In this document: piece by piece, positions 1 through 12,231 of the stretch | Numbering within the stretch: the first letter of the stretch is position 1 | How the letters are laid out: every line of letters begins with the position of its first letter | Position numbers and translations under genes: made by a program | DNA from: a virus | Taxonomy: Duplodnaviria; Heunggongvirae; Uroviricota; Caudoviricetes | IMG/VR virus record: IMGVR_UViG_2645727901_000013 | Length of the DNA: 12,231 bases | Direction: 5' to 3' (one strand) | Notes under the pieces: model-generated | Told to the model about the DNA's origin: nothing | Databases searched by the model: none | Seen by the model: the letters and a program-made list of their open reading frames with translations, nothing else

Positions 1-615
1 ACCCTCGTTCGGTAACTGCCACTGACTGGTACCAAACCAGTGCGAAGCCATGTTTTTCTTTCCGGTGGCTTCCGCTATCTGTTTTGACGTTATTCCCAGT
101 GATTTACGCGCATCACGAAAGTAAGAAATCAGCGGGGCCATGACGTGCTGTTTTAGCTCGCGCCCCTGTGCCACATAGCCATCATCTTTCGGGCGATACG
201 GTCCCTGATAATGTTCTGCAAACAGAATGCGCTCTGTTGCCGGAAAATACGCCCGCAGACTTTCCTTATTGCACCCGTTCCAGCGTCCGGACGGCTTCGC
301 CCAGATAATGTGGTTCAGCACATTAAAGCGCTCACGCATCATGATTTCGGTGTCAGATGCCAGGCGATGACCACAGAACAGGTAAAGACTTCCGGCAGGC
401 TTCAGTACCCGCCAGAACTGCGCCAGACACTGGTCCAGCCATTTCAGGTAATCATCGTCGCCCTCCCACTGGTTATCCCAGCCCTCGGGCTTCACTTTAA
501 AGTATGGCGGGTCTGTGACTATCAGATCGACAGAGTTTTCCGGTAAGGTCTGGATAAATTCCAGGCAATCAGCGTTGATTAACTCACAACTGGATATTTT
601 TACAGTATTAATCAT
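1..615 (-). CDS. DNA N6-adenine methyltransferase (beta-class, DPPY motif), 5' portion only; 3' end lies beyond the window
   Basis: Manual minus-strand translation from ATG at 615-613 is open to position 1 (no stop in the frame with codons 1-3, 4-6 ...). It begins MINTVKISSCELINADCLEFIQTLPENSVDLIVTDPPYFKVKPEG; DPPY is catalytic motif IV of N6/N4 amino-methyltransferases. Absent from the supplied ORF track, presumably because it has no in-window stop. Family assignment is established knowledge; no search run. Confidence 0.8.
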   Translation of the reverse strand, partial: MINTVKISSCELINADCLEFIQTLPENSVDLIVTDPPYFKVKPEGWDNQWEGDDDYLKWLDQCLAQFWRVLKPAGSLYLFCGHRLASDTEIMMRERFNVLNHIIWAKPSGRWNGCNKESLRAYFPATERILFAEHYQGPYRPKDDGYVAQGRELKQHVMAPLISYFRDARKSLGITSKQIAEATGKKNMASHWFGTSQWQLPNEG

Positions 616-751
616 AGATCAATAAGCACTTCTCTGATAGGCTCATACCGCTTTTGCGCAAAGCAGATGGGCCTGAGGTTTGCTTGTGACCCCAACGCAT
701 GAGCAGATGGCTGGCAGGTGCCGCTAACACCCACCAGCCGCCCATTACCAC

Positions 752-779
752 AAATTAAAAAGCCTTCACTGCGGAAGGC
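752..779 (-). terminator. Putative rho-independent terminator (minus strand)
   Basis: Seen in sequence: plus-strand GCCTTC (762-767) / loop ACTGCG / GAAGGC (774-779); read on the minus strand the hairpin is followed by TTTTTAATTT (complement of 752-761). The stop codon of the 766-963 ORF lies inside the stem. Confidence 0.5.
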
Positions 780-963
780 GTCTGTAACAACCGAACTGAT
801 AATCTGCCAGACCCGCCATAACAAGCTGAGTCAGTATTAACTGGCAGCGTTCGCGTGAAAGGTAAGTATTCTGCGCAATTTCCCCGACGGTCGCCGGTTC
901 GGTGACGCTTAATTCATTAAACACCACTCTGGCGGTTTCGGTCATATCCTGCTGTTTTAGCAT
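766..963 (-). CDS. Hypothetical small protein (about 65 aa), possible helix-turn-helix fold
   Basis: Track ORF 766..1086 begins with GTG at 1086 immediately after a terminator U-run and has no RBS, so I prefer the internal ATG at 963-961 (MLKQQDMTETARV...), which has a GGGA-containing purine run upstream. Bracketed by terminators at 1087-1115 and 752-779. Function unknown; HTH guess is from residue pattern only. Confidence 0.35.
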   Translation of the reverse strand: MLKQQDMTETARVVFNELSVTEPATVGEIAQNTYLSRERCQLILTQLVMAGLADYQFGCYRRLPQ

Positions 964-1086
964 GCCTTTTTCCCTTTTCCGGTTAACGTGACATACCAAT
1001 ACCTCTTGTCGAAAAAGCCAGCAAGCTGAAAGACCAGCATTCACAACCACCAGCGCATTTAACGTCCTGTACCGCTTTTCAGACAC

Positions 1087-1115
1087 AAAAAAACCCGCAT
1101 AAAGCGGGTTCTTTC
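1087..1115 (-). terminator. Strong intrinsic terminator downstream of Q-like gene (tR'-like); possibly bidirectional
   Basis: Seen in sequence: plus strand A-run (1087-1093), stem AACCCGC (1092-1098), loop ATAAA, GCGGGTT (1104-1110), then TTCTTTC. On the minus strand the hairpin is followed by 7 T. Position after the Q-like gene matches lambda tR' (established knowledge of lambdoid late-region layout). Confidence 0.7.
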
Positions 1116-1194
1116 AGGTGTCCATGTCTGCTATTCGCCTCGCGGTATAGCTTTGCGAAGCGTAGCTGGATTGAAACAGTTTATGCGTAAAAAA

Positions 1195-1749
1195 TCAAGA
1201 CATTTTTTGAGCAAACGATTCTCGCATAGGGATGTATAGCGCATATTCAGCAACAGCCAACCAATTAGCAATTCGCTTTTCGCATGTACTAAAACACCAT
1301 TCCGGGTGCACCTCATTCAACAATTCAGCCATTTTGCGTTTACTCATCCCCCGCCCTTCGTACCTTTGCCGCAGGATATCAATCAATCCAGGATAACGTG
1401 CAAGCGCTTTACTTATCACCCCATCAATGCGTAACGCCTCTGCATCAGTACAGTGAGACAACCAGCTCTTCTGTCTGCCAGCGATCATCTCTCGCAAGAA
1501 TGCTTCCAGCTCTGGTTTATCAATCCCTGACTCCCTGATTCTACGCAGGGCTTCATTGATCGCGGTTTTTGTCAGTTTTTTGGATGTCAGCAACTGATTG
1601 AACATATTTCCTGGTTTGCCACCACCTATGTACGACCAACGCCCCCACATCCGTAATTTCCCCTGGATCCAGACGGCTTCCAGCGTTTTTAGACGTAAAT
1701 GCTCGCCGCTTTTGCCTGTAATTTCCGGGTATATCATATTTACGATCAC
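1195..1749 (-). CDS. Late-gene antitermination protein Q-like (QuuD/Phage_antitermQ-type)
   Basis: 184-aa ORF directly downstream of rusA, the usual lambdoid Q position. It carries a W-G-R-W motif (LRMWGRWSY) and a LLTSKKLT segment that, recalled from memory, resemble the LERWGAWA and GLITSK regions of E. coli QuuD. The 1749 start is GTG overlapping the rusA stop; an alternative ATG is at 1737. Followed by a terminator. Family call from memory only. Confidence 0.6.
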   Translation of the reverse strand: MIVNMIYPEITGKSGEHLRLKTLEAVWIQGKLRMWGRWSYIGGGKPGNMFNQLLTSKKLTKTAINEALRRIRESGIDKPELEAFLREMIAGRQKSWLSHCTDAEALRIDGVISKALARYPGLIDILRQRYEGRGMSKRKMAELLNEVHPEWCFSTCEKRIANWLAVAEYALYIPMRESFAQKMS

Positions 1750-2105
1750 TCACTCTCAATTTTGTAAATCTTCACGCCCAGCCGCCCCCCAGGAACGAGC
1801 TGACCGCGCACAATATTAATTTCATCAAACTGCTCGTCGTCTATGAGAAGTCCGGCATGCGTCAGCGCATCCAGTGGTGCTTTCAGGATATTGTCCAGGT
1901 CACGACGACGCTTATCCGGTGGCTCTGCAATAATCTTTATCGCCAGCCGTCCGGACAGGTTTAATTTCAGCCGCTGCTCGCGAACAATTAGCGCCACATC
2001 CCGGCGATAACGCTCACCGGCTTTTGATACAAAATATGTGTTGTCACGACGTCGCCAGTAGGTGTTCACCGTTGGCGGGTAAGGCAAAACAAACTCTATA
2101 CGCAT
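1746..2105 (-). CDS. rusA: Crossover junction endodeoxyribonuclease RusA (Holliday junction resolvase)
   Basis: 119-aa protein with LPYPPTVNTYWRR near the N-terminus and the acidic catalytic segment DKRRRDLDNILKAPLDALTHAGLLIDDEQ, recognisably parallel to E. coli RusA (RRRDLDN...DALT...DD). Sits between nin-region-like genes and Q as in lambdoid phages. Confidence 0.9.
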   Translation of the reverse strand: MRIEFVLPYPPTVNTYWRRRDNTYFVSKAGERYRRDVALIVREQRLKLNLSGRLAIKIIAEPPDKRRRDLDNILKAPLDALTHAGLLIDDEQFDEINIVRGQLVPGGRLGVKIYKIESE

Positions 2106-2117
2106 CAGTAACCTCTT

Positions 2118-3113
2118 TTACCCAAGCACGCCGGTTGCAAAGGCGTGATCAAGAAAATGAAAAATTAAATCAACCTGGGAACCATGCTTTTCTTCGAATG
2201 CCAGCGGATCCGCATGAAGCTCGTTGTGATGTTCCCGACACAGCGGTAGTGTGAAAATATCGTGGGATTTTGTTCCCATTCCACCCTGACCGTGGCCTAT
2301 CAGGTGGTGGGCATCATCAGCAGGCTTTCCGCAACATGCGCACGGCTGCGTCTTAACCCAGCGCGTGTACTTTTCATTAACCCAGCGGCGACGTTTTGGG
2401 CGTAACATAAAAGACTCCGGCGACTCCGGATCCACTTTCAGCGCCAGCACCTTTTTCGCCTTATCCTGGATGATGCTGGTGGCAGTAACCGAAGGCACAA
2501 GGTCACTTTCCCGGGTAACAGACGGCACAACAGGCTTCGGTAATCTCAGTGCCTTACGGGCTGCACTTTCCGATAAGGCATCCGCCAGATCATTACGAAT
2601 CAGCCACCAGCACAGTTCCGGCATTGTCACAACGTGACTGTCGTCAAAACCGAGCTCCCGACGCACAACAGACAACACCCAGCGGGCACAGTTATCCGTT
2701 GCCATTGATTCCAGCCGTTCCGTGAACTGATCGCGCAGCTGGTTATCGCAGTGCCAGCACAGACGGATTGCGCCCGGAGCGTGTCGCATTGTGGTCATGT
2801 TCTCGCTGTGCCAGTTGGAATGAGGCCACTGACAGCCCTTTTCACGAAGTAACCAGCTTTCAAGACATTCCACGCCACCAGCACGACGGATCACTGCCTC
2901 ATTGCGGAACACGGCCCGAACGGCAGGATCATCCGCCAGCGGTTGTGATGCCGCCGGAACGGCACCACTGGCAAAAGATGAATAACGTTCCGGCTCAGGC
3001 TCCAGCAGGACACGCCCCTGCATAAACAGGGGCATCAGCTCTGAACCGGGCCTGAACAATACGATCCCCATACGCGGGGCAATTTCAGGGGTCAGTAGTG
3101 CTCTCACGGTCAC
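2118..3113 (-). CDS. Prophage protein with C-terminal HNH-like zinc/His motif (DUF968/YdfU-like)
   Basis: 331-aa ORF. C-terminus contains CACCGKPADDAHHLIGHGQGG...LCREHHNELH, i.e. Cys pair plus His-His and H-x3-H in HNH-type arrangement. Genes of this kind sit just upstream of rusA/Q in E. coli cryptic prophages (established knowledge). Family name is from memory and unverified. Confidence 0.65.
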   Translation of the reverse strand: MTVRALLTPEIAPRMGIVLFRPGSELMPLFMQGRVLLEPEPERYSSFASGAVPAASQPLADDPAVRAVFRNEAVIRRAGGVECLESWLLREKGCQWPHSNWHSENMTTMRHAPGAIRLCWHCDNQLRDQFTERLESMATDNCARWVLSVVRRELGFDDSHVVTMPELCWWLIRNDLADALSESAARKALRLPKPVVPSVTRESDLVPSVTATSIIQDKAKKVLALKVDPESPESFMLRPKRRRWVNEKYTRWVKTQPCACCGKPADDAHHLIGHGQGGMGTKSHDIFTLPLCREHHNELHADPLAFEEKHGSQVDLIFHFLDHAFATGVLG

Positions 3114-3158
3114 CTCAGCGAACGGTATTGCATGAACGCAGAAGAAAAAATTCAGCCA

Positions 3159-3416
3159 TCACGCAGTAAACTCCTTCACCAGTATTTCAAACTGGCTTAC
3201 CTGGCCTTCCAGTTCCGCCACGCAATCCACCAGCTCATCCACCGCCTTTTGTGTGCGGTGTTTTGCCAGCAGCAGATCACGCAGCGCCGGAGTAAGCTGC
3301 TTGCGGAGCGTATCCTTTGCCACGCTCGTTTTTTCCATCTGTTCAGCACAACGAAGCATCTCCTGCGCCTGCCGACGAAGTTGTTCCGGTGAAACAGTGA
3401 TTGCTCTGTTGTTCAA
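3159..3416 (-). CDS. Hypothetical protein (85 aa), charged and probably helical
   Basis: Track ORF; start ATG overlaps the stop of the upstream helicase gene (coordinates 3413-3416), consistent with translational coupling in the operon. No recognisable motif. Confidence 0.55.
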   Translation of the reverse strand: MNNRAITVSPEQLRRQAQEMLRCAEQMEKTSVAKDTLRKQLTPALRDLLLAKHRTQKAVDELVDCVAELEGQVSQFEILVKEFTA

Positions 3417-4813
3417 AATAAACGCTCCGTTTTACTGCCCGACATGCGGTTATTGCTGTATCTGCGCGGATTGCCCGGCGTCATGGGTGTGGAAAGAACC
3501 CGGGCACTCTCCTGGTCCACAGGCAGAAAATGTCCGTTATGAAAACGCCGGTAAATGGTCCCGAGCGTGCCATTACGCTGTTTCGTGATGTTGATTTCTG
3601 CTATGCCTCTGGCCTGAGTTTCCGGGTTGTATACCTCATCCCTGTAAAGCATCAGAATGATGTCGGCATCCGCCTCGATTTCCCCGGAGTTTTTCAGGTC
3701 CGAGTTCATTGGGCGTTTATTGGGTCTGGATTCCACGCCGCGGGAGAGCTGGCTCAGAGCAATCAGCGGAAAACCGCCGGATTTTGCCAGGCTTTTAAGT
3801 CCCTTTGAGATTTCCCCCACAGCAAGGTCGTGACGCCCCGTGCTGCGGGTTTTAATCAGGCCGAGGTAATCGACCACAACCAGCGCCGTTTCCGGGTGTT
3901 TCATCCGGTGGTGCTTCGTGGTTGCACATATCTCATCAATGGTCAGGTTTGCCTGGTCCACCATCCAGATATTACGCCCCGTCATTCGTCCCACGCCCTG
4001 CGAGAAACGCGCCCAGTCTTCATCTTCAAAACGGGCAACAGACTTAAGACGGGATACCGGCATTCCACCGGCAGCAGACACCATACGTTCACCAATCTGG
4101 ATGTTCGCCATCTCCATGGTGAACAGAAGCACGCCATGCCCCTGCTCAGTCACCTTGTCGATGATGTCCAGCGCAAGTTCGGTTTTCCCCATCGAAGGAC
4201 GGGCGGCAATGAATACCAGGTCTCCGGGCTCCATACCGCCCGTTTTTGCGTCCAGTTCATCAATACCGGTCATCAGCGCCCTGGATTTCTCCAGTCCCTG
4301 ATTGCGGCATTCAACACGGTCGACCACTTCCGGAAGGACATCATCAATGTGAACCGGCTGAATGACGCCCTTTCCGGTCGACAGTGAGGCCATCATGTTC
4401 TGCGCATCCTTCAGGGCATCCTCGGCTGCTTCACAGGTATACGCATCACGTAAATTCTGTAATGCTTCAGTCAGTGTTTTTTCTGCATCGCGCAGTGCGG
4501 CATTGCGCCGCAACGCTGCGACATAGTGCTCCAGTGAAGACTTCACCCAGGTTTTGCGTCCGGTGTCGGTAATCACCGGGGCAAGTTCCGGCATCTCATT
4601 GCACAGCAGTACGGGGTCAATGACGCCGGATATGCGAGCCTGTCTGCAAATCCCCGCGTAAATATCCCGGTACTGACGCACAAAAAATACATCCGCCGGA
4701 AGTGTGGCCAGAATATCCATCACTTCCGGATCGGCCCCACGCAGAAAAAACGCACCGATGACAGCGCCTTCCAGGTCATCGTTACGCCATGCCGGGGTGT
4801 TCTGGCTGGTCAT
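3413..4813 (-). CDS. Replicative DNA helicase, DnaB-like (phage-encoded)
   Basis: 466-aa ORF with Walker A IAARPSMGKTELALD, Walker-B-like LVVVDYLGL and DnaB-family arrangement (N-terminal domain plus RecA-like C-terminal domain). Start overlaps the stop of the DnaC-like gene (4810-4813). Confidence 0.9.
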   Translation of the reverse strand: MTSQNTPAWRNDDLEGAVIGAFFLRGADPEVMDILATLPADVFFVRQYRDIYAGICRQARISGVIDPVLLCNEMPELAPVITDTGRKTWVKSSLEHYVAALRRNAALRDAEKTLTEALQNLRDAYTCEAAEDALKDAQNMMASLSTGKGVIQPVHIDDVLPEVVDRVECRNQGLEKSRALMTGIDELDAKTGGMEPGDLVFIAARPSMGKTELALDIIDKVTEQGHGVLLFTMEMANIQIGERMVSAAGGMPVSRLKSVARFEDEDWARFSQGVGRMTGRNIWMVDQANLTIDEICATTKHHRMKHPETALVVVDYLGLIKTRSTGRHDLAVGEISKGLKSLAKSGGFPLIALSQLSRGVESRPNKRPMNSDLKNSGEIEADADIILMLYRDEVYNPETQARGIAEINITKQRNGTLGTIYRRFHNGHFLPVDQESARVLSTPMTPGNPRRYSNNRMSGSKTERLF

Positions 4814-5718
4814 GCGGCAACACCTCCGATACGAGAACGGTAGCTGGGCCAGTTAAACGACAACCAGTTGCGCCCGCCATCGGTGATCCTGTCGGCAATC
4901 CGGGGACTGATGAACGCCCACAATTCTTCCGGTGAAAGGTTGCTGATCAGGATAGTTGGCAAAATACCCTCATACCGGGCATTGATAATTTCCTGCAAAA
5001 TGGCCATTTCAGCCGCACTGCCAAACTGAACGCCGACTTCGTCGACAATCAGCAAATCCAGTGACGCATAATGCTCAATGACGTCATCCGCTGTTTTTTC
5101 ACTGTCATTCCGCCAGCAGTTTTTCACAGCCCGGGTAAGGCGCATCACGTCGGTGATCTCCACACTGGCCAGATAGTTACGGATGATGTGTTTTGCCATT
5201 GATACCGCCAGATGATTTTTCCCGGTACCGCAACTGCCGGTCATAACAAGACTGGTACCGTTCTCCAGCATATCTGGCCAGTTCTCCGCATAGCGGCGAC
5301 AGGCCGCAAGATTTCTGGCTGCGTCAGGATTAACCTCCAGATAATTATCAAACTCGCAGTCCCGAAAACGCAGAGCAATTCCGGCGTTATCAGTCAGTTC
5401 TTCCGCCTTGAGGGACGACAGTTCCATGGTCAAATCACTGGCCTCAGCGATCAAGCAGTCAGGGCAGCATGAAATTTTTTCTCTGTCCTCGCCATTACGA
5501 TCGATCCACACCAGTATATGCGTACGATATTTACCGTGTTTTTCGCAATATCCGCGACCTTCACGCATCAGGCAGGAACGATAAGGCCATGGCTTTTCGC
5601 CCTTCTGAGCAAATGCAATCTCTGCCCGTAACTCATCCATTTCTGCCCGTAACTCATCCATTCGCGCCTGTAGTCTTGTTTGTTTCTCACGTTGGTCAAT
5701 CGTCATCATCGCTGTCAC
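4810..5718 (-). CDS. DnaC/IstB-like AAA+ helicase loader with N-terminal Cys-rich (zinc-ribbon-like) extension
   Basis: 302-aa ORF; Walker A MTGSCGTGKNHLA and Walker B LLIVDEVG typical of DnaC/IstB ATPases. N-terminal region has C..C....CC..C cysteines and an in-frame tandem MDELRAE repeat. Confidence 0.85.
   Translation of the reverse strand: MTAMMTIDQREKQTRLQARMDELRAEMDELRAEIAFAQKGEKPWPYRSCLMREGRGYCEKHGKYRTHILVWIDRNGEDREKISCCPDCLIAEASDLTMELSSLKAEELTDNAGIALRFRDCEFDNYLEVNPDAARNLAACRRYAENWPDMLENGTSLVMTGSCGTGKNHLAVSMAKHIIRNYLASVEITDVMRLTRAVKNCWRNDSEKTADDVIEHYASLDLLIVDEVGVQFGSAAEMAILQEIINARYEGILPTILISNLSPEELWAFISPRIADRITDGGRNWLSFNWPSYRSRIGGVAA
5621..5662. repeat. Perfect 21-bp tandem duplication (2 copies) inside the DnaC-like gene
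   Basis: Seen in sequence: TCTGCCCGTAACTCATCCATT at 5621-5641 and again at 5642-5662. In-frame, giving MDELRAE-MDELRAE in the encoded protein. Confidence 0.9.
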
Positions 5719-5719
5719 C

Positions 5720-6712
5720 TCAGAATGTCAATTTGTTACTGGATTTACCGAATTTGTCAGACATGGCTCCCAGGCCAGCCAGGACATCGACCTGTCGCTG
5801 TCGCCCACCTCCGTGAGCGGCTGGCTGTTGCCAGTAATCTTCGAAGTGACGATCGGGTCCAAAGAACGTCGCAGCCTGCTTCACGAACTGTGTGCCGATA
5901 TTTCCTGTAGCACGTACCCAGGCGGCATACCGCTTCACGCCATCAAGCATGGTCTCCGGTTTTATTCCCTCCCTGATACGGGCTTTCCAGGCTTTGAAGG
6001 CTGCTGACTTGGAATTGCCACCAGCACGTTTGGGATATTCCTGCCAGGCCTGTTCAAATTCCGGTGAATATTCCTGTCGGGCAGAACGCGCTGGCGCAGA
6101 CGCGTCAGCGGATGCATCAATAGTGTTTTTAGTCTCCGTTGTAATCTCTGTAGTAATCTCTGTATTTGTATCAACATTCGGCGTATCCCCTGTTCCGTTA
6201 TGACGTCGGGGGGTGTTCCGTTTTAACGTAATAGCTGTATCGCTGATTGCATTATTGCTGTTACTTTCTGGCGAAACAGAAGAAGGTGTGGTGATGGCCG
6301 CAATTGCCTGTGGGTTGATCCCGACAAACAAAATATTGCTGCATTTCACCCCATCGAGCATTTCCACCGTGCGTAAATCCAGAGTAATAAACCCTGCATC
6401 GCGCAGACGCTTCAGCGCATCTGCGGTTTCCCTTTTCCCGAAACCAAACTGCTCAGCAAACGCCTGGTAGCTTCTTTGCAGTTTGTCGCCCTGAAAACGC
6501 TTGCGATATCCCAGCAACGCTCCGGTGTGCTCATCCCTGACCTCTGTCGGGCGGTACCAGTAAACGATCTCTGAAAGCAGAGCGATAGCCGTCGCATCCG
6601 GACGCCCACTGGGTAGTCGAATATATTTCCACCAGTTCGCAGGTGTAACATTGCCGGAAATATTAATTTGACCAATAGCCATAACTTCCGGTGTGGGGGC
6701 GTAACGGCTCAT
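5720..6712 (-). CDS. Phage replication initiation / replisome organizer protein (O-like; N-terminal organizer domain plus conserved phage C-terminal domain)
   Basis: 330-aa ORF in the lambda O position, immediately upstream of the helicase-loader and helicase genes. Low-complexity central linker (…NTEITTEITTETKNTIDASADASA…). C-terminal segment EYSPEFEQAWQEYPKRAGG…AAFKAWKARI fits the conserved phage replication-protein C-terminus as I recall it. Domain names from memory. Confidence 0.75.
   Translation of the reverse strand: MSRYAPTPEVMAIGQINISGNVTPANWWKYIRLPSGRPDATAIALLSEIVYWYRPTEVRDEHTGALLGYRKRFQGDKLQRSYQAFAEQFGFGKRETADALKRLRDAGFITLDLRTVEMLDGVKCSNILFVGINPQAIAAITTPSSVSPESNSNNAISDTAITLKRNTPRRHNGTGDTPNVDTNTEITTEITTETKNTIDASADASAPARSARQEYSPEFEQAWQEYPKRAGGNSKSAAFKAWKARIREGIKPETMLDGVKRYAAWVRATGNIGTQFVKQAATFFGPDRHFEDYWQQPAAHGGGRQRQVDVLAGLGAMSDKFGKSSNKLTF
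6141..6164. repeat. Iteron-like direct repeat (2 x 12 bp GTAATCTCTGTA) in the linker of the O-like gene; candidate origin element
   Basis: Seen in sequence: GTAATCTCTGTA at 6141-6152 and 6153-6164, followed by TTTGTATC. Lambda-type origins lie inside the initiator gene as iterons (established knowledge); the assignment here is inference. Confidence 0.4.
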
Positions 6713-7008
6713 ACAACCTCCTTCCGCGGCATGAGAATTGTGTAGCCACGCGCAGGTTGTAGTCTGGCTTTTGCATCAATAGTAAGCGTTGCAATTTTTC
6801 GGATATGAAGATAACCAGCTCTTTCCAGTGCCAGGGTTTCCCTGAATATCGCTTGCTTAGAACAACAGCAGAAATCAGCAAGCACCCGATGATCAATAAC
6901 TCTCTCGCCTTCACCGTCTGAAGAACCCGACATCAAAACACGCAACATAATCAGGCGCTGAATCGGGTTATCGAAAGCACATCCGCACACAAACTGAAAA
7001 CAGTTCAC
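6709..7008 (-). CDS. Hypothetical protein (99 aa), possible winged-helix DNA-binding protein
   Basis: Track ORF; ATGA-type start/stop overlaps with both neighbours (7005-7008 and 6709-6712) place it in the coupled operon. Segment KQAIFRETLALERAGYLHIRK looks like a recognition helix/wing; weak. Confidence 0.5.
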   Translation of the reverse strand: MNCFQFVCGCAFDNPIQRLIMLRVLMSGSSDGEGERVIDHRVLADFCCCSKQAIFRETLALERAGYLHIRKIATLTIDAKARLQPARGYTILMPRKEVV

Positions 7009-7229
7009 GCCACACCTCCCAGACGCTTAAACATTTTTCCAGACAGAAATACCGCCAGAGGGTAACTGATGGTGTAGCTACGCCCCTGTAGTTCGCACAC
7101 GACTTTCTGGCTTTCAGCGTTGACTAGGCAAACCCGCAGAACGTGACCGTTGCTGGTGGCGAACCACTGCCCCACACGGGGGCAACGGTTGTATCGGTGA
7201 TACAGGGAATTAACGATGTGGCGGATCAT
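7005..7229 (-). CDS. Hypothetical protein (74 aa)
   Basis: Track ORF; start overlaps upstream stop (7226-7229), stop overlaps downstream start (7005-7008). No recognisable motif. Confidence 0.45.
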   Translation of the reverse strand: MIRHIVNSLYHRYNRCPRVGQWFATSNGHVLRVCLVNAESQKVVCELQGRSYTISYPLAVFLSGKMFKRLGGVA

Positions 7230-7420
7230 GGACGCACCTCCGCCGTAGTTACGTATTTAACCGGGCTACCTTTCATTGAGATGGTTTCACACATCTCTGC
7301 CGCTTTCAGTTCCGCTGTTTTTCTGGATTTATAGCGACGGTGCCAGACAGATACATCCGTGCGAACTGATACATCGTTTCTGTATTCCGTAGTGGAGATG
7401 ATGATTTCGTAACTAATCAT
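7226..7420 (-). CDS. Hypothetical protein (64 aa)
   Basis: Track ORF; start overlaps the stop of the Rha-like gene (7417-7420). No recognisable motif. Confidence 0.45.
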   Translation of the reverse strand: MISYEIIISTTEYRNDVSVRTDVSVWHRRYKSRKTAELKAAEMCETISMKGSPVKYVTTAEVRP

Positions 7421-8265
7421 GGGCGAACCTCCTTGTCAGAACCATTCAGCCTGGAATCAACAAGTGCAGCGCCAAAAACAGCATCACCAACACGGTCGTA
7501 CAGTTTGCTAGCCAGCGGAGATTCAACGGCCTTAAGCATTGGATAAAGCTGGCTTGTCCAGATTTGATGGATTTCACGCAAATGCAGGTATACGCCTCTG
7601 GCGTTTCGTGCGACAGCTGACATATCAACCGCGTCAGCACCAGATAAATTCTTCTCCATCTGGTTAAAGGCGTTGATGTATGCCTCTTTGAACCGGGCTG
7701 CACGTTTGCCAGTAAAGCCCATAGCAAGGAACGCGAAGCCATCGCGGGTGATTTGATAGCAAGGTAGTTTGCGGCCTGTGCAATCGGTGTAATCACTGGG
7801 CTGAAAATTCAGCTCAGTGAATTCAACAGAGCACTCAAGCGTCTGGATTTTTTGAATAACGTTTTTGTGCTGCTTGCAGAAATATTCGGCAACGGCCAAA
7901 GAAGAGGTAACAGCCTTCCCATGGATAACATCAATTTTAGAGTGAGTTTGGGTAGGGGTGGTTGCCATAGTGACATCCTCATGTGCGAATTTTGAAAACT
8001 CACCACATGGGACGCCAATCACAGAGGTGGTGAGACGTACAGGGTTGGCGTAACCGGTCGCACATGACCCCGGCGCATCTTTCGATGCCCCTGCACGCCC
8101 CACCATAATTTGGATGTGAGGAAACGTGCGCAAAAAAACCGCTGAAGCGCGGTTATGCGCATGTGCGAATTTCAGGACGCCAATCCCGGCACCCGCTTTA
8201 TAAGGTGCGGAGACAGTGTAACGTCCCGAAATTGCAGAATCAATATTTGGTCTTGAAATGATCAT
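7417..8265 (-). CDS. Phage regulatory protein, Rha family (N-terminal start uncertain: 8265 or internal ATG at 7963)
   Basis: Central region GKAVTSSLAVAEYFCKQHKNVIQKIQTL…YQITRDGFAFLAMGFTGKRAARFKEAYINAFNQME matches the Rha-domain pattern as I recall it. The ATG at 7963-7961 (MATTPTQ…) has a good GAGGAT Shine-Dalgarno 7 nt upstream, whereas ATG 8265 has none. However, the frame is open from 8265 and contains an in-frame internal repeat, so the long form cannot be excluded. Confidence 0.7.
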   Translation of the reverse strand: MIISRPNIDSAISGRYTVSAPYKAGAGIGVLKFAHAHNRASAVFLRTFPHIQIMVGRAGASKDAPGSCATGYANPVRLTTSVIGVPCGEFSKFAHEDVTMATTPTQTHSKIDVIHGKAVTSSLAVAEYFCKQHKNVIQKIQTLECSVEFTELNFQPSDYTDCTGRKLPCYQITRDGFAFLAMGFTGKRAARFKEAYINAFNQMEKNLSGADAVDMSAVARNARGVYLHLREIHQIWTSQLYPMLKAVESPLASKLYDRVGDAVFGAALVDSRLNGSDKEVRP

Positions 8266-8348
8266 ATAGCTGCTGATATCTTTAGAACTGTTCTTGGATG
8301 TTTCGGAGCCGTTTTATGCGAAACAGCTCCCCGTTATTGATGTTGAGT

Positions 8349-8374
8349 GAGCCGGGTTACTCCCGGCTTTTTTT
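8349..8374 (+). terminator. Intrinsic terminator oriented for the plus strand (antisense to the early operon); oop-like
   Basis: Seen in sequence: stem GCCGGG (8351-8356), loop TTACT, CCCGGC (8362-8367), then 7 T (8368-8374) on the plus strand. On the minus strand the hairpin is not followed by a U-tract. Lies between the two minus-strand Rha-like genes, the position of the lambda oop terminator. Confidence 0.6.
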
Positions 8375-9081
8375 CATCGCTGCCAACCAATAACCTGAAA
8401 TAACCCCATTTTCGGGTGATACCAGCGAGTCCCTCGCGGTTCTGCTTCCTCCATAACCCGATAAAAAGCAGCCATAAACGGTTCCACAGCAACAATTGCG
8501 CGACGTGACAACAATCCGTCCGGCGTCATGAACTCATGTGTGTCTGTAGGAATTTGATAGGCGTTCACCAGATTGCGGCATTTATCATCTGACAAACCGG
8601 TTTTTGCTTTCAGTTGGCGATATCCGGCATAGCCCTCACGAATAGTGCCCTTTTTAATTTGCTCGACTGTTTCAGCAACGTGGCTGACTTTTTCTTCCAC
8701 CTGAGTGATCCGTTTCTGTTGGCGAACGGCTTCAAGAGCCATCGCGGCAACCATTTCGATTTCGCTCATTGGCTTACGGATCTGTTCTTCCAGTTCGCGC
8801 CAGCGATCTACCAGGCGAGCTGTGAATTCAGGACAGAGCTGTGCGACGACAATGATGCTGTCGCGCTTACCTCGTTCACCTTCGAATACATACGCGCTAG
8901 AAAATCGGCGAGGCCCAAGTGATTGTTTATTCTCAATTTCCACAGTCTGTGGAAATTGGATGATTCCCTTTTTAGCCAGTGTTTCAATAGTTCTCTTAAC
9001 ACTATCTGGTCGGCTTCCCACCAGCTCTGCGATCTCAACGCTGGTCATGGATGCTTTGCCGTTAAAAATTGCGGTGTTCAT
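8374..9081 (-). CDS. Phage regulatory protein, divergent Rha-like (cII-position gene)
   Basis: 235-aa ORF whose start overlaps the cro-like stop (9078-9081). N-terminal TSVEIAELVGSRPDSVKRTIETL…YVFEGERGKRDSIIVVAQL follows the same residue pattern as the Rha domain in the next gene (SSLAVAEYF..HKNVIQKIQTL…ITRDGFAFLAMG). Assignment by pattern comparison only. Confidence 0.55.
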   Translation of the reverse strand: MNTAIFNGKASMTSVEIAELVGSRPDSVKRTIETLAKKGIIQFPQTVEIENKQSLGPRRFSSAYVFEGERGKRDSIIVVAQLCPEFTARLVDRWRELEEQIRKPMSEIEMVAAMALEAVRQQKRITQVEEKVSHVAETVEQIKKGTIREGYAGYRQLKAKTGLSDDKCRNLVNAYQIPTDTHEFMTPDGLLSRRAIVAVEPFMAAFYRVMEEAEPRGTRWYHPKMGLFQVIGWQR

Positions 9082-9368
9082 TGTTTATCTCCTGCGTGTA
9101 TTCCATCCGCTCTGTGTGGTGAACTTGGATTTAGGCTTTTGCGTAACAAGTTAGGAATTCCATCTTCAGGGTGAGGATAAAGATCTGGCCTTAAGCCATG
9201 AGGCGTAACCTTCCATGCAACTACTTCACATACTCGTAAAACGAAACGAGCAGGAATTGTGCTTTTTGAAAACCACTGATTCACCGCTTGCGGCGTCACA
9301 CCAAGATTTCGCGCTATGGCATTTTGCGCAATTAATGCACGAAGTTTGTCGTAATCATTTCCTTCCAT
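9078..9368 (-). CDS. Cro-like HTH regulator (Cro/YdaS-type), first gene of the early rightward operon
   Basis: Divergent from the CI-like gene across a 133-bp AT-rich region. Contains ARNLGVTPQAVNQWFS, a Cro/CI-type HTH signature comparable to lambda Cro LGVYQSAINKAI. No strong SD at the 9368 start, so the exact start is uncertain. Confidence 0.7.
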   Translation of the reverse strand: MEGNDYDKLRALIAQNAIARNLGVTPQAVNQWFSKSTIPARFVLRVCEVVAWKVTPHGLRPDLYPHPEDGIPNLLRKSLNPSSPHRADGIHAGDKQ

Positions 9369-9501
9369 AACAAAGCACCAATATTAACTTTATAAATCAA
9401 GAATACATCAAGTTTAAATTAACATGCAAGTTACAAAAGGATCGAATACACTAAAATCAAGTAAAGATTTATCCTTGTAAAGAAACCCACAGGATTTGGT
9501 C
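9369..9501. promoter_or_regulatory. Immunity switch region (OR-like) between divergent cro-like and cI-like genes, with repeated ATCAAG-containing motifs
   Basis: Seen in sequence: AAATCAAG at 9394-9401 and 9454-9461, ATCAAGTTTAAATT at 9407-9420, ATCAAGTAAAGATT at 9456-9469, GAATAC at 9401-9406 and 9443-9448. Individual promoters and operator boundaries could not be resolved by eye. Confidence 0.5.
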
Positions 9502-10191
9502 ATGAAGAACGTCAAAAACACGGAAAATCGAATAGCCGCGATGCTGAAAGCAAAAGGATGGACTCAGGCTCAACTGGCCCGCAAGTTAGGTGTGAGTGCG
9601 CAATCAGTGCAGTACTGGACAACAGGAAAAACATTTCCACGGAGTGATAAGCTCGCGCATTTATCAGAGATTAGCGGTTATCCACAATCCTGGTTCTTAG
9701 GTGAAGACTCCTCACCAACCTTTTCCTCGCAAGAGAAACACCAGACAAGAACAGATAGCGTCGTATTTAATGTCCTTGATGTTGAGTTTAGTTGCGGTGA
9801 TGGAACTCATGTCCGTGGTGACTTGATAGATGTAGTGCGCTCAATAGAACTTGATCCTGAATATGCCCGACGTCTTGTTGGAAATCGGGCATTCAAAAAT
9901 ATAGAAATAGGTAACGCCAGAGGAGACAGTATGGCTCCCACAATCTCACCTGGCGACCTTCTTTTTCTTGATAAGACAGTAACTTATTTTGATGGCGATG
10001 GTATTTATGCATTTTGTTTTGATGGAGAATGCTACGTGAAAAGGCTTCAAAAAATTGGAAGCAAAATCATGGTGTTATCTGATAACCCCAATTATCAACC
10101 ATGGAGCATCGAAAAAGAGGGGTTAGCTCTGCTTTATATCCAGTCTAAAGTGATCTCATCAGTACCATTCAACATAAACAGATTTGGTTAG
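9502..10191 (+). CDS. CI-like prophage repressor: N-terminal XRE-type HTH plus C-terminal S24 (LexA-like) autopeptidase domain
   Basis: HTH: KGWTQAQLARKLGVSAQSVQYWTTGKTFP. S24 catalytic Ser in GDSMAPT and Lys in YVKRL; candidate Cys-Gly cleavage site in EFSCGDG (as in UmuD). ATG at 9502 has AGGAT 6 nt upstream; the track start at 9496 is a TTG. Followed by a strong terminator. Confidence 0.9.
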   Translation: MKNVKNTENRIAAMLKAKGWTQAQLARKLGVSAQSVQYWTTGKTFPRSDKLAHLSEISGYPQSWFLGEDSSPTFSSQEKHQTRTDSVVFNVLDVEFSCGDGTHVRGDLIDVVRSIELDPEYARRLVGNRAFKNIEIGNARGDSMAPTISPGDLLFLDKTVTYFDGDGIYAFCFDGECYVKRLQKIGSKIMVLSDNPNYQPWSIEKEGLALLYIQSKVISSVPFNINRFG

Positions 10192-10202
10192 TCTTTGATT
10201 TT

Positions 10203-10225
10203 AACGGGCTTTGCCCGTTTTTTTT
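10203..10225 (+). terminator. Rho-independent terminator downstream of cI-like gene
   Basis: Seen in sequence: AACGGGC (10203-10209), loop TTT, GCCCGTT (10213-10219), T-run of 8 (10218-10225), 12 nt after the cI stop. Confidence 0.8.
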
Positions 10226-10255
10226 CTGCCTGAAATATACGATATCAATTTTTTC

Positions 10256-10284
10256 TTGACAGCCTGTTTCCCAAAACATAATAT
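10256..10284 (+). promoter_or_regulatory. Near-consensus sigma70 promoter driving the accessory cassette downstream of cI
   Basis: Seen in sequence: TTGACA (10256-10261), 17-bp spacer, TAATAT (10279-10284). An ATCAAGTTATAATT-like motif (reverse orientation, 10294-10307) just downstream resembles the OR motif at 9407-9420, so repressor control is possible (inference). Confidence 0.55.
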
Positions 10285-10337
10285 CGCACCATCAATTATA
10301 ACTTGATTTGATTCAATTTAAAATTGTTGGCGGATAT

Positions 10338-10886
10338 ATGAAGACACTAAAAGCAACTCCAGAAACAACTAATTTTATCAACTGCGGCTGTGTTACGCTT
10401 AAGGGCTTAGAACTTGATTCCTTTGCATTAAATATTGCAAATTTGCTAAGTGCTGTACGCACATTCCATCTTCTGGATTGTGCTCGCTCAAAGGAACTGG
10501 GCATTGAGGTAATGGAATTTATCCATGAATATGCTCTATCTGCTGCTTCTCCTGCACAACAAAAACAATCCTTCCCTGAAAGCTGGCTGGTTAACCTTCG
10601 CACCCAACGCGAAGCCTGCGGCTTAACAACCGCCGAACTCGCCAGGCTGCTCGATCTCGATGAAGAAATTATCATCCAGTGGGAGAGCGGAGAGTATGAA
10701 CCAACTATCAGTATGCTTATCCCACTGGCAAATATTCTTGGCTGCGATCCGATGTGCCTGTTAACTGGTGAGGTTACTCCTCCGGAGCAACCAAAAAGTG
10801 AGGAGCAGCAACACCATGACGCATCTCAACAAGTTTGCCCCTTATCTCGCGAAGCTCTTCTGCGGAAGAACCAATACCAATGGTGA
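10338..10886 (+). CDS. Two-domain protein: unknown N-terminal domain plus C-terminal XRE-family HTH
   Basis: C-terminal LRTQREACGLTTAELARLLDLDEEIIIQWESGEYEPTISMLIPLANILGCDPMCLLTGE is a textbook Cro/CI-type HTH_3 segment. I prefer ATG 10338 over the track's TTG at 10308. The last ~35 codons overlap two other ORFs, so the 3' end is uncertain. N-terminal ~95 aa unassigned. Confidence 0.6.
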   Translation: MKTLKATPETTNFINCGCVTLKGLELDSFALNIANLLSAVRTFHLLDCARSKELGIEVMEFIHEYALSAASPAQQKQSFPESWLVNLRTQREACGLTTAELARLLDLDEEIIIQWESGEYEPTISMLIPLANILGCDPMCLLTGEVTPPEQPKSEEQQHHDASQQVCPLSREALLRKNQYQW

Positions 10887-11014
10887 CATAATCGCCGCTT
10901 CGCCCTTCAAGGTACATGCGAACATTTTTATCAATCATTGCGGAAACAGTCTCAATATGAAAACACTTCTGAGACTCGCTATATAGCAGAACATATAAGT
11001 CAGCTGAGGAAGCC

Positions 11015-11380
11015 ATGAAAAAGTTCGAAAACATAACTGTTCTCCATGTTGATGACTTTGATTATACAAACCCGGAACTTCTCCCGGAGGTTGTAAAGGC
11101 AATGGATGTTGCCGATATAGTGATTAGAGAAAAGAGAATTGTCAAAAACAGGCTCGCATGCACTTCAGGAGCAATGACAGAAACAACCTCACAGCAAGAT
11201 AATTACGAAGGCATTTGTCTGGAGCCTGATTCATTTGCGGTAAATGTTTATCATTTATTGCATGCAACACAGGTATTACATATGTCCAGTAATCACGAAA
11301 CGAAAACACTCGGCAGCGAAATTCTGAGTTTTGCATGTGAGTATACAAAAGCTGCTGCCGAAAAAGAATTAGCGCAATAA
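11015..11380 (+). CDS. Hypothetical acidic protein (121 aa)
   Basis: ATG at 11015 preceded by GAGGAAG with about 4-nt spacing; frame open for 121 codons in an AT-rich region. No recognisable motif. Confidence 0.55.
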   Translation: MKKFENITVLHVDDFDYTNPELLPEVVKAMDVADIVIREKRIVKNRLACTSGAMTETTSQQDNYEGICLEPDSFAVNVYHLLHATQVLHMSSNHETKTLGSEILSFACEYTKAAAEKELAQ

Positions 11381-11458
11381 CAACAAATATGCCCTGAACG
11401 TTTATTGCGGTTTTATCGCCGGGGATTGTTACAACCTTAATCCACAGGAGGCTTTATT

Positions 11459-11572
11459 GTGACTTTTATAAAGAATATGGCATCACACAAGACCGCCTGC
11501 CTTATTGCACAATACGGTGAAAATTACATGCATATTGCCTGCTTATTTCTGCGTAAAGCATACGGGAGATAA
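11459..11572 (+). CDS. Candidate small ORF (37 aa, GTG start), not in the supplied track
   Basis: Seen in sequence: consensus AGGAGG (11446-11451), 7-nt spacer, GTG at 11459; translation (V/M)TFIKNMASHKTACLIAQYGENYMHIACLFLRKAYGR; TAA at 11570-11572, 2 nt before the next gene's ATG at 11575. Could be a small protein or leader peptide. Confidence 0.3.
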   Translation: MTFIKNMASHKTACLIAQYGENYMHIACLFLRKAYGR

Positions 11573-11574
11573 TA

Positions 11575-11763
11575 ATGCATCAGAAAACAGCAGAACACGA
11601 ACAAACCAGAATATTGCTGACCATCAAAAACGGGAAAGTAATATTCATTCTCCATGTTCATGACGATGAACTTGTAGGAACTCTTTCAACATTCCTGTTT
11701 ATTGCAGAAAAGGCAGGATATGACGTTATTGCACCAGCAGATGAAGATGAAGATGAGGAATAA
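11575..11763 (+). CDS. Hypothetical small protein (62 aa) with polyacidic C-terminal tail (ADEDEDEE)
   Basis: ATG at 11575 with GGGAGA 5 nt upstream; stop 5 nt before the next gene's ATG. No recognisable family. Confidence 0.5.
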   Translation: MHQKTAEHEQTRILLTIKNGKVIFILHVHDDELVGTLSTFLFIAEKAGYDVIAPADEDEDEE

Positions 11764-11768
11764 ATATC

Positions 11769-12143
11769 ATGCAATACGATGAATTCCAGGCTGAAGCAAC
11801 AGCCAATGGTATACGAACTGGCAGTATGACGATTGATTATCACGACGCCATACGTCGTCTGGATGCCGGAGAATTCGATACTCCTAATGTGCGAGGTTTA
11901 CGTATCCTTCAGTGTCTGGCGCAAGCCGACGAAGCAGGATTACTGGGTAAACTTCCGGTTGAGATGAAGGTTGCTCAGTGGCGATGGTTGTATGTGACGA
12001 CATTCATCAACGAAGAAGAAGACAAGAACGGCACAATTGATATCCTGAATGAACACGGAACAACTGAACACGCCGTGGTATATAACGGGATGTATGGGTT
12101 TATGACGATATATCCCGGCCCCATTCGATTTGCCTTACGGTGA
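11769..12143 (+). CDS. Hypothetical protein (124 codons as read); 3' end interrupted by the IS1 insertion, so likely truncated
   Basis: ATG at 11769 with GAGGAA upstream. The final codon CGG (12138-12140) and the TGA stop (12141-12143) are built from the first bases of the IS1 terminus (GGTGATG…), so the native C-terminus is unknown. Confidence 0.5.
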   Translation: MQYDEFQAEATANGIRTGSMTIDYHDAIRRLDAGEFDTPNVRGLRILQCLAQADEAGLLGKLPVEMKVAQWRWLYVTTFINEEEDKNGTIDILNEHGTTEHAVVYNGMYGFMTIYPGPIRFALR

Positions 12144-12231
12144 TGCTGCCAACTTACTGATTTAGTGTATGATGGTGTTTTTGAGGTGCTCCAGTGGCTT
12201 CTGTTTCTATCAGCTGTCCCTCCTGTTCAGC
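12139..12231 (+). mobile_element. IS1 insertion sequence, left (insA-proximal) terminus; element continues beyond the window
   Basis: 12139-12231 reads GGTGATGCTGCCAACTTACTGATTTAGTGTATGATGGTGTTTTTGAGGTGCTCCAGTGGCTTCTGTTTCTATCAGCTGTCCCTCCTGTTCAGC, which matches the IS1 left end (terminal inverted repeat GGTGATGCTGCCAACTTACTGAT and start of insA) as I recall it. Recognition from memory; no alignment run. Confidence 0.85.
12194..12231 (+). CDS. insA: IS1 InsA, N-terminal fragment (continues beyond the window)
   Basis: GTG at 12194 followed by GCT TCT GTT TCT ATC AGC TGT CCC TCC TGT TCA = (M)ASVSISCPSCS, the known InsA N-terminus with its CxxC zinc-finger start. Confidence 0.8.
   Translation, partial: MASVSISCPSCS

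Follow-up and report, generated by a model that had tools for sequence, protein, structure and literature searches.

The gene block downstream of cI in a lambdoid prophage segment is probably the promoter-proximal part of a repressor-controlled early-left operon

Results

The gene block downstream of cI and its relatives

The stretch of DNA analysed here, 12,231 nucleotides (nt) in length (IMG/VR record IMGVR_UViG_2645727901_000013; hereafter the window), is recognizable by its sequence as a segment of a lambdoid prophage, and we are concerned with the group of small genes at positions 10226 to 12138, directly downstream of the cI repressor gene, which we call the cassette. An earlier interpretation made from the letters of the DNA (the sequence-only reading) had described here a terminator, a promoter of the form TTGACA-17-TAATAT and five plus-strand open reading frames (ORFs), the last of them cut by IS1, in a compact cluster that adjoins cI downstream and runs in the same direction. 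All of these features lie where they had been placed, and the coordinates bear out the compact, co-directional arrangement. The five ORFs encode, in order, an XRE-family regulator of 182 amino acids (aa), an acidic protein of 121 aa, a basic protein of 37 aa, an acidic protein of 62 aa and the 5′ part of a 193-aa protein. The gene list was nevertheless incomplete, in that a minus-strand gene for an 86-aa protein and a set of operator-like repeats had been overlooked.

Positions 9069 to 12138 are 99.9% identical to the prophage at mlrA (yehV) of Escherichia coli O55:H7 RM12579 (L001), and the induced phage PhiR49_2 of ECOR13 (L002) is 99.6% identical to the window. Over the whole cassette the identity is 99.5% for PhiR49_2 and, in parts, 80-97% for phiP27 (L003). 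The comparison set consisted of eight loci with the same gene order and three repressor types, namely type A (the window, L005, L006 and L009), type B (phiP27, L004 and L007) and type C (ASU11). Genome counts refer to 5426 complete E. coli genomes.

The cassette had also been thought to be richer in A and T than the rest of the prophage. The difference exists, the G+C content being 42.4% at 10226-12138 versus 51.2% at 1-9077, but the cro-cI segment is AT-rich to the same degree (41.2% G+C), and low G+C is therefore not peculiar to the cassette.

Promoter and operator-like sites after the cI terminator

The cI gene, at 9502 to 10191 on the plus strand, encodes a protein that matches Pfam Peptidase_S24 (E value 4e-17) and HTH_3 (E value 5e-8) and is labelled cI or XRE regulator in L001 and L002. 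The gene belongs to the context of the cassette and sets the immunity type. The automatic ORF list begins this gene at a TTG at 9496 (231 aa); RefSeq and the alignments begin it at the ATG at 9502 (229 aa). An intrinsic terminator for the cI transcript lies at 10203-10219 on the plus strand and has a 7-base-pair stem with five GC pairs, a 3-nt loop and a T8 tail. It is followed on the same strand by the TTGACA-17-TAATAT promoter (10256-10284; −35 hexamer at 10256-10261, −10 hexamer at 10279-10284), which matches the consensus at 10 of 12 positions. The match alone proves nothing, because the consensus promoter matches in the region do not exceed chance (7 versus 6.7 ± 2.6 expected). Promoter-like hexamers are present at the equivalent place after cI in types B and C and in another type A phage (A′).

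Operator-like palindromes overlap this promoter. One sequence, ATCAATTnTnnCTTGA, an imperfect palindrome of 16 nt, is present in two copies, one at 10244-10259 over the −35 hexamer and the other at 10291-10306 over the start site. The upstream copy, ATCAATTTTTTCTTGA, is of OL type and belongs to repeat family D4, while the downstream copy, ATCAATTATAACTTGAT, which extends from about 10291 to 10307 and would occupy about +1 to +20, is conserved in L005 and L009. When up to two mismatches are allowed, the motif ATCAATTNTNNCTTGA is found five times in the 12.2-kb window, versus 0.59 expected, and none of 200 shuffles reached five. The remaining copies of this motif are a third, weaker operator-like site, TCAATTTAAAATTGTT, at 10313-10328 (two mismatches), one at 9457-9472 in the cro-cI spacer, and one at 7930 that is probably fortuitous. 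A further word, AAATCAAG, is shared by the two regions, with two copies in the cro-cI spacer and one at the promoter.

The same relationship between the two spacers was seen in each immunity type, the post-cI spacer bearing words of the cro-cI spacer of the same phage. In type B, the 12-mer CCAAAGTATCAA is present in both OR and PL, and CTTGATACCTTAG is found in addition within the promoter spacer; in type C, ATAGAAC...CTAT units are present in both the cro-cI and the post-cI spacer. The 8-mers shared between OR and PL spacers form a block-diagonal pattern by immunity type, with 5-13 shared in type A, 2-11 in type B and 0-3 across types. Because the operator-like palindromes recur in the cro-cI spacer and change with the immunity type, we read the promoter as one of PL/OL type, and the plus-strand genes would then be repressed by cI in the lysogen. 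Our preferred explanation, which we regard as probable, is that the region from 10226 to 12138 makes up the promoter-proximal portion of the early-left (PL) operon in a lambdoid prophage of the phiP27/Stx1-phage type and that cI represses it in the lysogen.

Conservation of gene order

The order found directly after cI, that is, XRE regulator, small paralogue of the regulator, 37-aa protein (in most cases), 62-aa protein and a protein of 190-193 aa, was found in 25 sequenced phages, which are phiP27 (two records), PhiR49_2, ASU11, phi467 (in part) and 20 members of the LC56xxxx/LC616079 series, the last comprising 19 Shiga toxin (Stx)-converting phages and PPyecE_EH1910. Genes L10 to L06 of phiP27, PhiR49_2, ASU11 and the Stx1a and Stx2a phages of O145:H28 (LC5678xx) have the same genes in the same order. 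The blocks differ in detail. In the window, IS1 interrupts the 193-aa gene; in phiP27, the place of the 86-aa gene is taken by other DNA; and the Stx phages have a regulator with two helix-turn-helix (HTH) domains and a short paralogue and lack the minus-strand gene. Among the E. coli genomes, 308 carry the HTH segment, 242 the minus-strand gene segment and 203 the segment with the 62-aa and 193-aa genes, and all of these are chromosomal. The block is kept across the three repressor types, across replication modules (O/P-like or primase-helicase) and with several integrases. The cI and regulator genes are invariably adjacent, 97-146 nt apart, and there is therefore no cargo slot between cI and PL.

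In intact relatives (L001 and L002) the plus-strand genes are followed by DUF4752 and ea22-like genes and then by xis and int, and such a same-strand continuation to xis/int was seen in L001, L002, L003, L005, L006, L007 and L008. Plus-strand terminators between 10220 and 12138 were looked for and none was found. These comparisons point to the block being a conserved operon head with which the left arm begins, and not hotspot cargo or an island. The cluster does co-occur as a unit next to cI, as the head of an operon and not as the content of a hotspot; the term accessory cassette does not fit a constant order after cI in 25 phages and 200-300 of the 5426 genomes, with an operon that reaches xis/int.

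Substitution and conservation patterns support all of the ORFs as coding. The earlier statement that none of the proteins belongs to a recognizable family holds for Pfam, NCBIfam and PADLOC, which gave nothing for the cassette proteins beyond HTH_3 or generic HTH matches; it does not hold for PHROGs, which has a family for every ORF except that of 37 aa. The genes of the block are labelled in databases as hypothetical, as "transcriptional regulator" or as "putative CII repressor", those of phiP27 (L06 to L10) being hypothetical, and no functional study of phiP27 L10, of the WP accessions or of this block was found in the literature.

The sequence-only reading had favoured another explanation, in which the genes form a lysogen-expressed accessory cassette in the slot of rexAB and sieB, driven by a constitutive promoter and encoding a new exclusion, abortive-infection or anti-defence module. 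The co-directional site next to cI, the near-consensus promoter, the low G+C content and the lack of assigned functions are all compatible with this explanation. Other prophages do place defence genes just downstream of the repressor, as in the case of rexAB in lambda and bstA in BTP1; rexAB is co-transcribed with cI, and both RexB and SieB are membrane proteins. In lambdoid early-left operons, moreover, genes just left of cI may, as has been noted, ride on the cI transcript (PMC12315714). In the window, however, the likeness to rexAB and sieB is limited to map position left of cI. Unlike the arrangement in rexAB, a strong terminator (10203-10219) and a separate, operator-flanked promoter (10256-10284) intervene between cI and the cluster, and the operator-like sites that overlap this promoter are immunity-specific, the mark of a repressed PL and not of a co-transcript as in rexAB or of a constitutive moron promoter. 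The constant syntenic block over three immunity types and many phages is a further argument against an accessory module.

Nor do the proteins resemble defence factors. PADLOC-DB v2.0, which does not cover systems described after 2023, returned for six proteins only HTH matches to RmrA, HTH_VI and capH, with E values of at least 7e-7, and no match to an effector. Enzymatic domains were found in none of the cassette proteins with Pfam and NCBIfam, and no RexA or RexB homology was detected with PADLOC, Pfam or NCBIfam. No match to the SieB family was obtained in Pfam, and transmembrane segments were absent, unlike in RexB or SieB, the maximal Kyte-Doolittle score over 19 residues (KD19) being at most 1.67 for the regulator, which is borderline, and below 1.1 in all others. 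We consider a defence cassette of this kind very unlikely. Homologues of ordinary early-left genes, that is, of the Rec module, cIII, kil and ral, were likewise not found in Pfam, PHROGs or NCBIfam.

The XRE regulator and its small paralogue

The first gene of the block, at 10338 to 10886 on the plus strand, encodes the 182-aa regulator, an acidic protein (isoelectric point, pI, 4.76) with an HTH_3 domain at residues 87-138 (PF01381, E value 3e-10, 40.4 bits versus a cut-off of 23) that belongs to phrog_4836 (E value 4e-77). Alignment divides it into an N-terminal helical domain (residues 1-86; 10338-10595), the HTH domain (residues 87-145; 10596-10772) and a tail (about 10776-10886). Searches of PDB sequences matched P22 C2 (E value 1e-4) and MBF1. 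The HTH, RTQREACGLTTAELARLLDLDEEIIIQWESGEYEPTISMLIPLANILGCDP, is near-invariant across all E. coli phages of the group, which implies that one conserved DNA target may be shared across immunity types. The N-terminal region of about 85 aa, by contrast, is variable, and its types go with the cI type. A mosaic joint at 10596 coincides exactly with the border between the N-domain and the HTH, and the N-domain of the regulator is therefore part of the immunity module that is exchanged, along with cro, cI and the operators. To the right of 10596, many E. coli prophages are more than 99% identical to the window, to which they are unrelated on the left. The regulator of some phages has an extra, second HTH, as in the two-HTH form of the Stx phages. 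The tail, comprising the last 36 codons or so, is not conserved as protein; the comparison with ASU11 gave 3 synonymous and 31 non-synonymous substitutions, with 3 stops in ASU11.

One could envision that this XRE protein is a CII-like factor or second repressor that sets the lysis-lysogeny decision, as a substitute for the cII gene that is missing beside cro. This proposal is compatible with the early-left operon and only specifies the role of the regulator. PHROGs and some GenBank records carry the labels "CII-like regulator" or "putative CII repressor", and DicA is the best NCBIfam match, well under the cut-off. In L001 and L002, cro is followed by Rha/Roi genes and not by a cII-like gene. 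The near-invariant HTH, with its implied conserved target, is in keeping with such a role, as is an invariant near-palindrome at 11415-11427 (see below). The labels, however, are annotation by analogy, the target site is a candidate only, and the similarity of the HTH (P22 C2, E value 1e-4) is of a generic XRE kind. We hold the CII-like role to be tentative, and the same doubt applies to its corollary that the small proteins encoded downstream might act as stabilisers or antagonists of the regulator, like cIII.

The second plus-strand gene, at 11015 to 11380, encodes the 121-aa acidic protein (pI 4.99; phrog_5451, phrog_4587), the C-terminal half of which (11174-11380) is a paralogue of the N-domain of the regulator. 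BLASTP aligned residues 24-70 of the regulator with residues 69-115 of the 121-aa protein (43% identity over 47 aa, E value 2e-10), and the type A regulator N-domain and the 121-aa protein gave reciprocal PHROG matches. The N-terminal half, an extension, occurs only together with the minus-strand gene or its remnant; the Stx phages have a short form of 66-68 aa that consists of the paralogue domain only, the 66-aa protein being encoded 5 nt after the regulator gene. We considered that the 121-aa ORF is an over-call of a 68-aa gene, as RefSeq annotates 68 aa, and rejected this as an explanation that would hold generally. Homologues that share as little as 44% identity still have a length of exactly 121 aa and a conserved N-terminal half, which shows that the long form is real.

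The arrangement of regulator and paralogue resembles that of SinR and SinI, in which the small protein SinI titrates SinR, and it suggests by analogy that the 121-aa protein could titrate the regulator in the same way. We give this titration only a minority chance, because the type of the paralogue does not track the type of the regulator N-domain. Alternatively, the regulator N-domain and the paralogue might bind a common third partner. No match to the SinI or SinR-multimerisation families of Pfam was obtained at E values up to 0.1.

An overlooked minus-strand gene

The 86-aa gene lies on the minus strand at 10774 to 11034, convergent with PL. It shares 113 nt with the 3′ part of the regulator ORF and 20 nt with the beginning of the 121-aa ORF. 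Its product belongs to phrog_6104 (E value 1e-49), and the gene is absent from the RefSeq annotations that we inspected. When the window was compared with ASU11 in the 86-aa frame, 16, 12 and 36 substitutions fell at the first, second and third codon positions, 25 of the changes were synonymous, and protein identity was 77%. The other frames over the gene contained stops and, excepting the one that shares its wobble position, had 0-5 synonymous changes. Homologues of 82-88 aa with 59-97% identity are found with the same neighbours in Escherichia, Salmonella and Citrobacter. On these comparisons we take the 86-aa gene to be a real gene under purifying selection.

The trio of regulator, minus-strand gene and paralogue recurs in Salmonella and Citrobacter prophages that have quite different small repressors. 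In these prophages the regulator gene is convergent with an 88-aa gene, with an overlap of 100-119 nt, and the 88-aa gene is divergent from a 121-aa gene, with an overlap of 20 nt. The slot itself is variable. It is empty in the Stx phages, where a 5-nt gap is left, and in phiP27 about 580 bp of unrelated DNA take the place of the gene beyond codon 36. An unannotated plus-strand ORF of 80 aa (5201-5443 of phiP27) is located there right after L10, and L09 is on the minus strand at 5494-5673. This variation suggests that the gap between regulator and paralogue serves as a small site at which extra genes are inserted.

The AlphaFold2 (AF2) model of the 86-aa protein has a predicted local distance difference test score (pLDDT) of 78.6 and a beta-beta-alpha-beta-alpha order of elements; it gave no significant structural neighbour. 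An identity as a GIY-YIG nuclease was rejected, as the resemblance failed the sequence tests.

A candidate promoter for the 86-aa gene, TTGACA-17-CACTAT, is present on the minus strand at 11117 to 11145; it is weak and falls below the threshold of the promoter scan. The 17-nt spacing of its hexamers is kept in Salmonella and Citrobacter (TTGACA/CACTAT and TTGATA/TACGAT), the spacer sequence differs, and the site is within conserved coding sequence. The 86-aa gene is the only one in the region that would plausibly be expressed in the lysogen independently of the repressor, and an RNA transcribed from it would run antisense to the regulator gene at the 3′ end of the latter.

One scenario, then, is that the 86-aa gene, together with the N-terminal extension of the 121-aa ORF, in which the upstream region of the 86-aa gene lies, is a small moron inserted between the regulator and the paralogue with a lysogenic promoter of its own. 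The purifying selection, the occurrence in three genera and the invariable slot and orientation, with overlaps of 100-119 nt at the 3′ end and 20 nt at the 5′ end, speak for this scenario, as does the variation of the slot, which is empty in Stx phages and holds other DNA with the minus-strand L09 in phiP27. The long 121-aa form accompanies the minus-strand gene or its remnant and the short form of 66-68 aa is found without it, and the TTGACA-17-CACTAT spacing is kept in Salmonella and Citrobacter. Conversely, the candidate promoter has a weak −10 hexamer and is situated in conserved coding sequence, so that the protein may explain its conservation; a minus-strand terminator downstream was looked for and none was found; and expression is a prediction. 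We regard a moron as conceivable, with the balance on the doubtful side. Such a moron would act either as a protein that functions in exclusion or regulation or by an antisense transcript that damps the regulator mRNA.

Distal genes and the IS1 insertion

In the spacer before the 37-aa ORF, at 11415 to 11427, there is a 13-mer, ATCGCCGGGGATT, that is palindromic at 10 of 12 positions. It is identical and present once in each of the eight related E. coli and phage loci, while its flanks vary, and it is a candidate for the site bound by the conserved HTH regulator or for a regulatory signal of another kind. The 37-aa ORF (11459 to 11572, plus strand; pI 9.5) begins with GTG, and a consensus Shine-Dalgarno sequence, AGGAGG, precedes this start by 7 nt. 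Its conservation extends to six loci, relative to L005 there are 10, 4 and 17 substitutions at the three codon positions, and it has no family match in Pfam, NCBIfam or PHROGs. The 62-aa acidic protein, with the tail ADEDEDEE, is encoded at 11575 to 11763 on the plus strand (phrog_340, E value 4e-21; codon-position pattern 22, 12 and 31), is present in the same 25 phages and shows weak PHROGs matches to the C-termini of anti-repressors.

The last gene of the block is represented by its 5′ 123 codons (11769 to 12138, plus strand; phrog_1515, E value 3e-90), within a 124-codon ORF that runs to 12143. An intact 193-aa copy, WP_001199104, is present in L001. The codon-position pattern of the gene is 26, 22 and 61. 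The family consists of phage proteins of 190-220 aa in about 100 clusters at 50% identity, and Pfam scans of its longer members revealed no informative fused domains. The AF2 model has a pLDDT of 90.8, and the predicted fold is confident and without known relative among solved structures. Searches of PDB sequences with the 193-, 121-, 62- and 86-aa proteins returned nothing. We regard the 37-, 62- and 193-aa proteins as candidates for early regulatory or host-takeover functions, lambdoid early-left genes often serving host takeover or anti-restriction; an early anti-defence role is possible for the 62-aa and 193-aa proteins.

Identity to the intact L001 ends at 12138, and the break at 12138|12139 confirms that the last ORF is interrupted. 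The last 93 nt of the window (12139 to 12231, plus strand) occur in 72,920 copies in 4,988 genomes, with a median of 10 per E. coli genome, and we take this multicopy element to be an end of IS1, with the terminal inverted repeat and the start of insA. The orientation is such that insA is on the operon strand, and the target duplication falls beyond the end of the window. The junction at 12139 was sought in the complete E. coli genomes of the collection, none of which carries it; the DNA probably derives from a draft genome or from a different host, for instance Shigella. The insertion inactivates the 193-aa gene and cuts the downstream genes, presumably ea22, xis and int, off from PL; the prophage is therefore probably impaired in excision.

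Discussion

In lambda, the PL promoter with its OL operators drives an early-left operon that runs from N to xis and int. The block studied here has a comparable layout, in that the promoter is downstream of the repressor gene and co-directional with it, is overlapped by operator-like sites that appear related to those of OR, and opens an operon that ends with xis and int. Unlike in lambda, the first gene encodes an acidic XRE regulator and not an arginine-rich N antiterminator, and no small arginine-rich protein of N type was found as the first gene, no systematic search for nut sites being made. There are also no plus-strand terminators to override, so that antitermination would not be needed, and no Rec module, cIII, kil or ral homologues were found. 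Lambdoid phages without a Rec module are a recognized group (PMC12315714). The region belongs to the class of lambdoid early-left operons, in an N-less and Rec-less variety.

If the early-left explanation is correct, cI would occupy the OL-type sites in the lysogen and PL would be silent. Upon induction or infection PL would fire, and its transcript would express in order the regulator, the paralogue and then the translationally packed 37-, 62- and 193-aa proteins. The paralogue would most probably either modulate the regulator or compete with it for the same partner, by protein-protein contact, in the manner in which SinI antagonises SinR. Both the timing of expression and the SinI-like mechanism are what we infer from the arrangement of the genes.

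Several points weigh against the early-left explanation with its proposed mechanism. The OR sites of the window itself match the PL sites at only about 12 of 17 positions, the shuffle test confined to the window is modest (P about 0.03), and repression by cI is a prediction from the sequence. The immunity comparison comprises three types, and PL is physically linked to cI, so that part of the covariation could be hitch-hiking, although hitch-hiking would not explain words that are common to two separate spacers of one phage. Some expression of the distal genes could also escape the repressor by way of a second promoter-like site at 11174-11203. Finally, the same paralogue sits with type A, type B and type C regulators, and this lack of co-variation is mild evidence against a strict specificity of heterodimer formation.

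The comparison with SinR/SinI (and SlrR/SlrA) of Bacillus subtilis extends to an XRE regulator with a helical interaction domain and a nearby small paralogue of that domain. It differs in the order of domains, which is reversed, the interaction domain being N-terminal here, and in the paralogue type, which does not follow that of the regulator N-domain; a heterodimer is hypothetical here. The 86-aa gene calls to mind the OOP RNA of lambda, which lies opposite the 3′ end of cII, in that a short transcription unit is convergent with an early regulator gene and overlaps its 3′ end. Unlike OOP, the antisense unit encodes a conserved protein of 86 aa, and it is known here from its sequence.

Another scenario is that the trio of the regulator with its immunity-linked N-domain, the convergent, overlapping 86-aa gene and the paralogue constitutes a lysis-lysogeny or exclusion switch, not described before, that would be found in N-less lambdoid prophages of Escherichia, Salmonella and Citrobacter and would be accompanied by new early factors. 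The 86-aa gene, expressed in the lysogen, would restrain the regulator by antisense RNA, by its protein or by both; once the prophage is induced, the paralogue would antagonise the regulator as SinI does SinR; and among the new early factors would be the 62-aa and 193-aa proteins, with functions in host takeover or anti-defence. We think that a switch with all of these parts is unlikely.

A place beside cI is not enough to identify a defence island, since this group of phages has a repressor-controlled early-left operon in that slot, and a false lead is thereby removed. Other leads emerge from the analysis. The 86-aa gene is found in three genera, would be antisense to an early regulator and is missing from the RefSeq records inspected. 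The XRE regulator with a free-standing copy of its N-domain has a SinR/SinI-like design in phages without N and cII. The 193-aa family has a fold that is predicted with confidence and matches nothing solved. Since both Stx1- and Stx2-converting phages carry the block, the regulators that it encodes could matter for the induction of toxin phages.

Other features of the window

The minus strand of the window carries early-right genes, namely cro (9078-9368), two genes of Rha/Roi type, O-, DnaC- and DnaB-like replication genes, and genes for DUF968, RusA and DUF1133. Positions 1-1200 match a DNA methyltransferase fragment, a hypothetical gene and DUF1133, and this segment, which is found in about 40% of the complete E. 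coli genomes with up to 7 copies in each, is a widely shared nin-region/late-regulation segment.

A tRNA search of the cassette found none, and an E-value scan of 9000-12231 against Rfam gave only chance-level matches. Two Rfam matches above the gathering score are located on the minus strand farther to the left, a C4 antisense RNA at 8023-8110 (75 bits) and the Hfq-binding RNA isrK at 8132-8208 (62 bits), and both fall within the 5′ third of a 282-aa "Rha family" ORF (7417-8265, minus strand). It is probable that the actual Rha/Ant-like gene begins at a Met farther along and that RNA of the P1 immI-like or Gifsy isrK-like kind controls it. If this is true, an RNA-controlled Rha/Ant-like gene would constitute a second induction circuit, of anti-repressor type, beside the S24-type cI.

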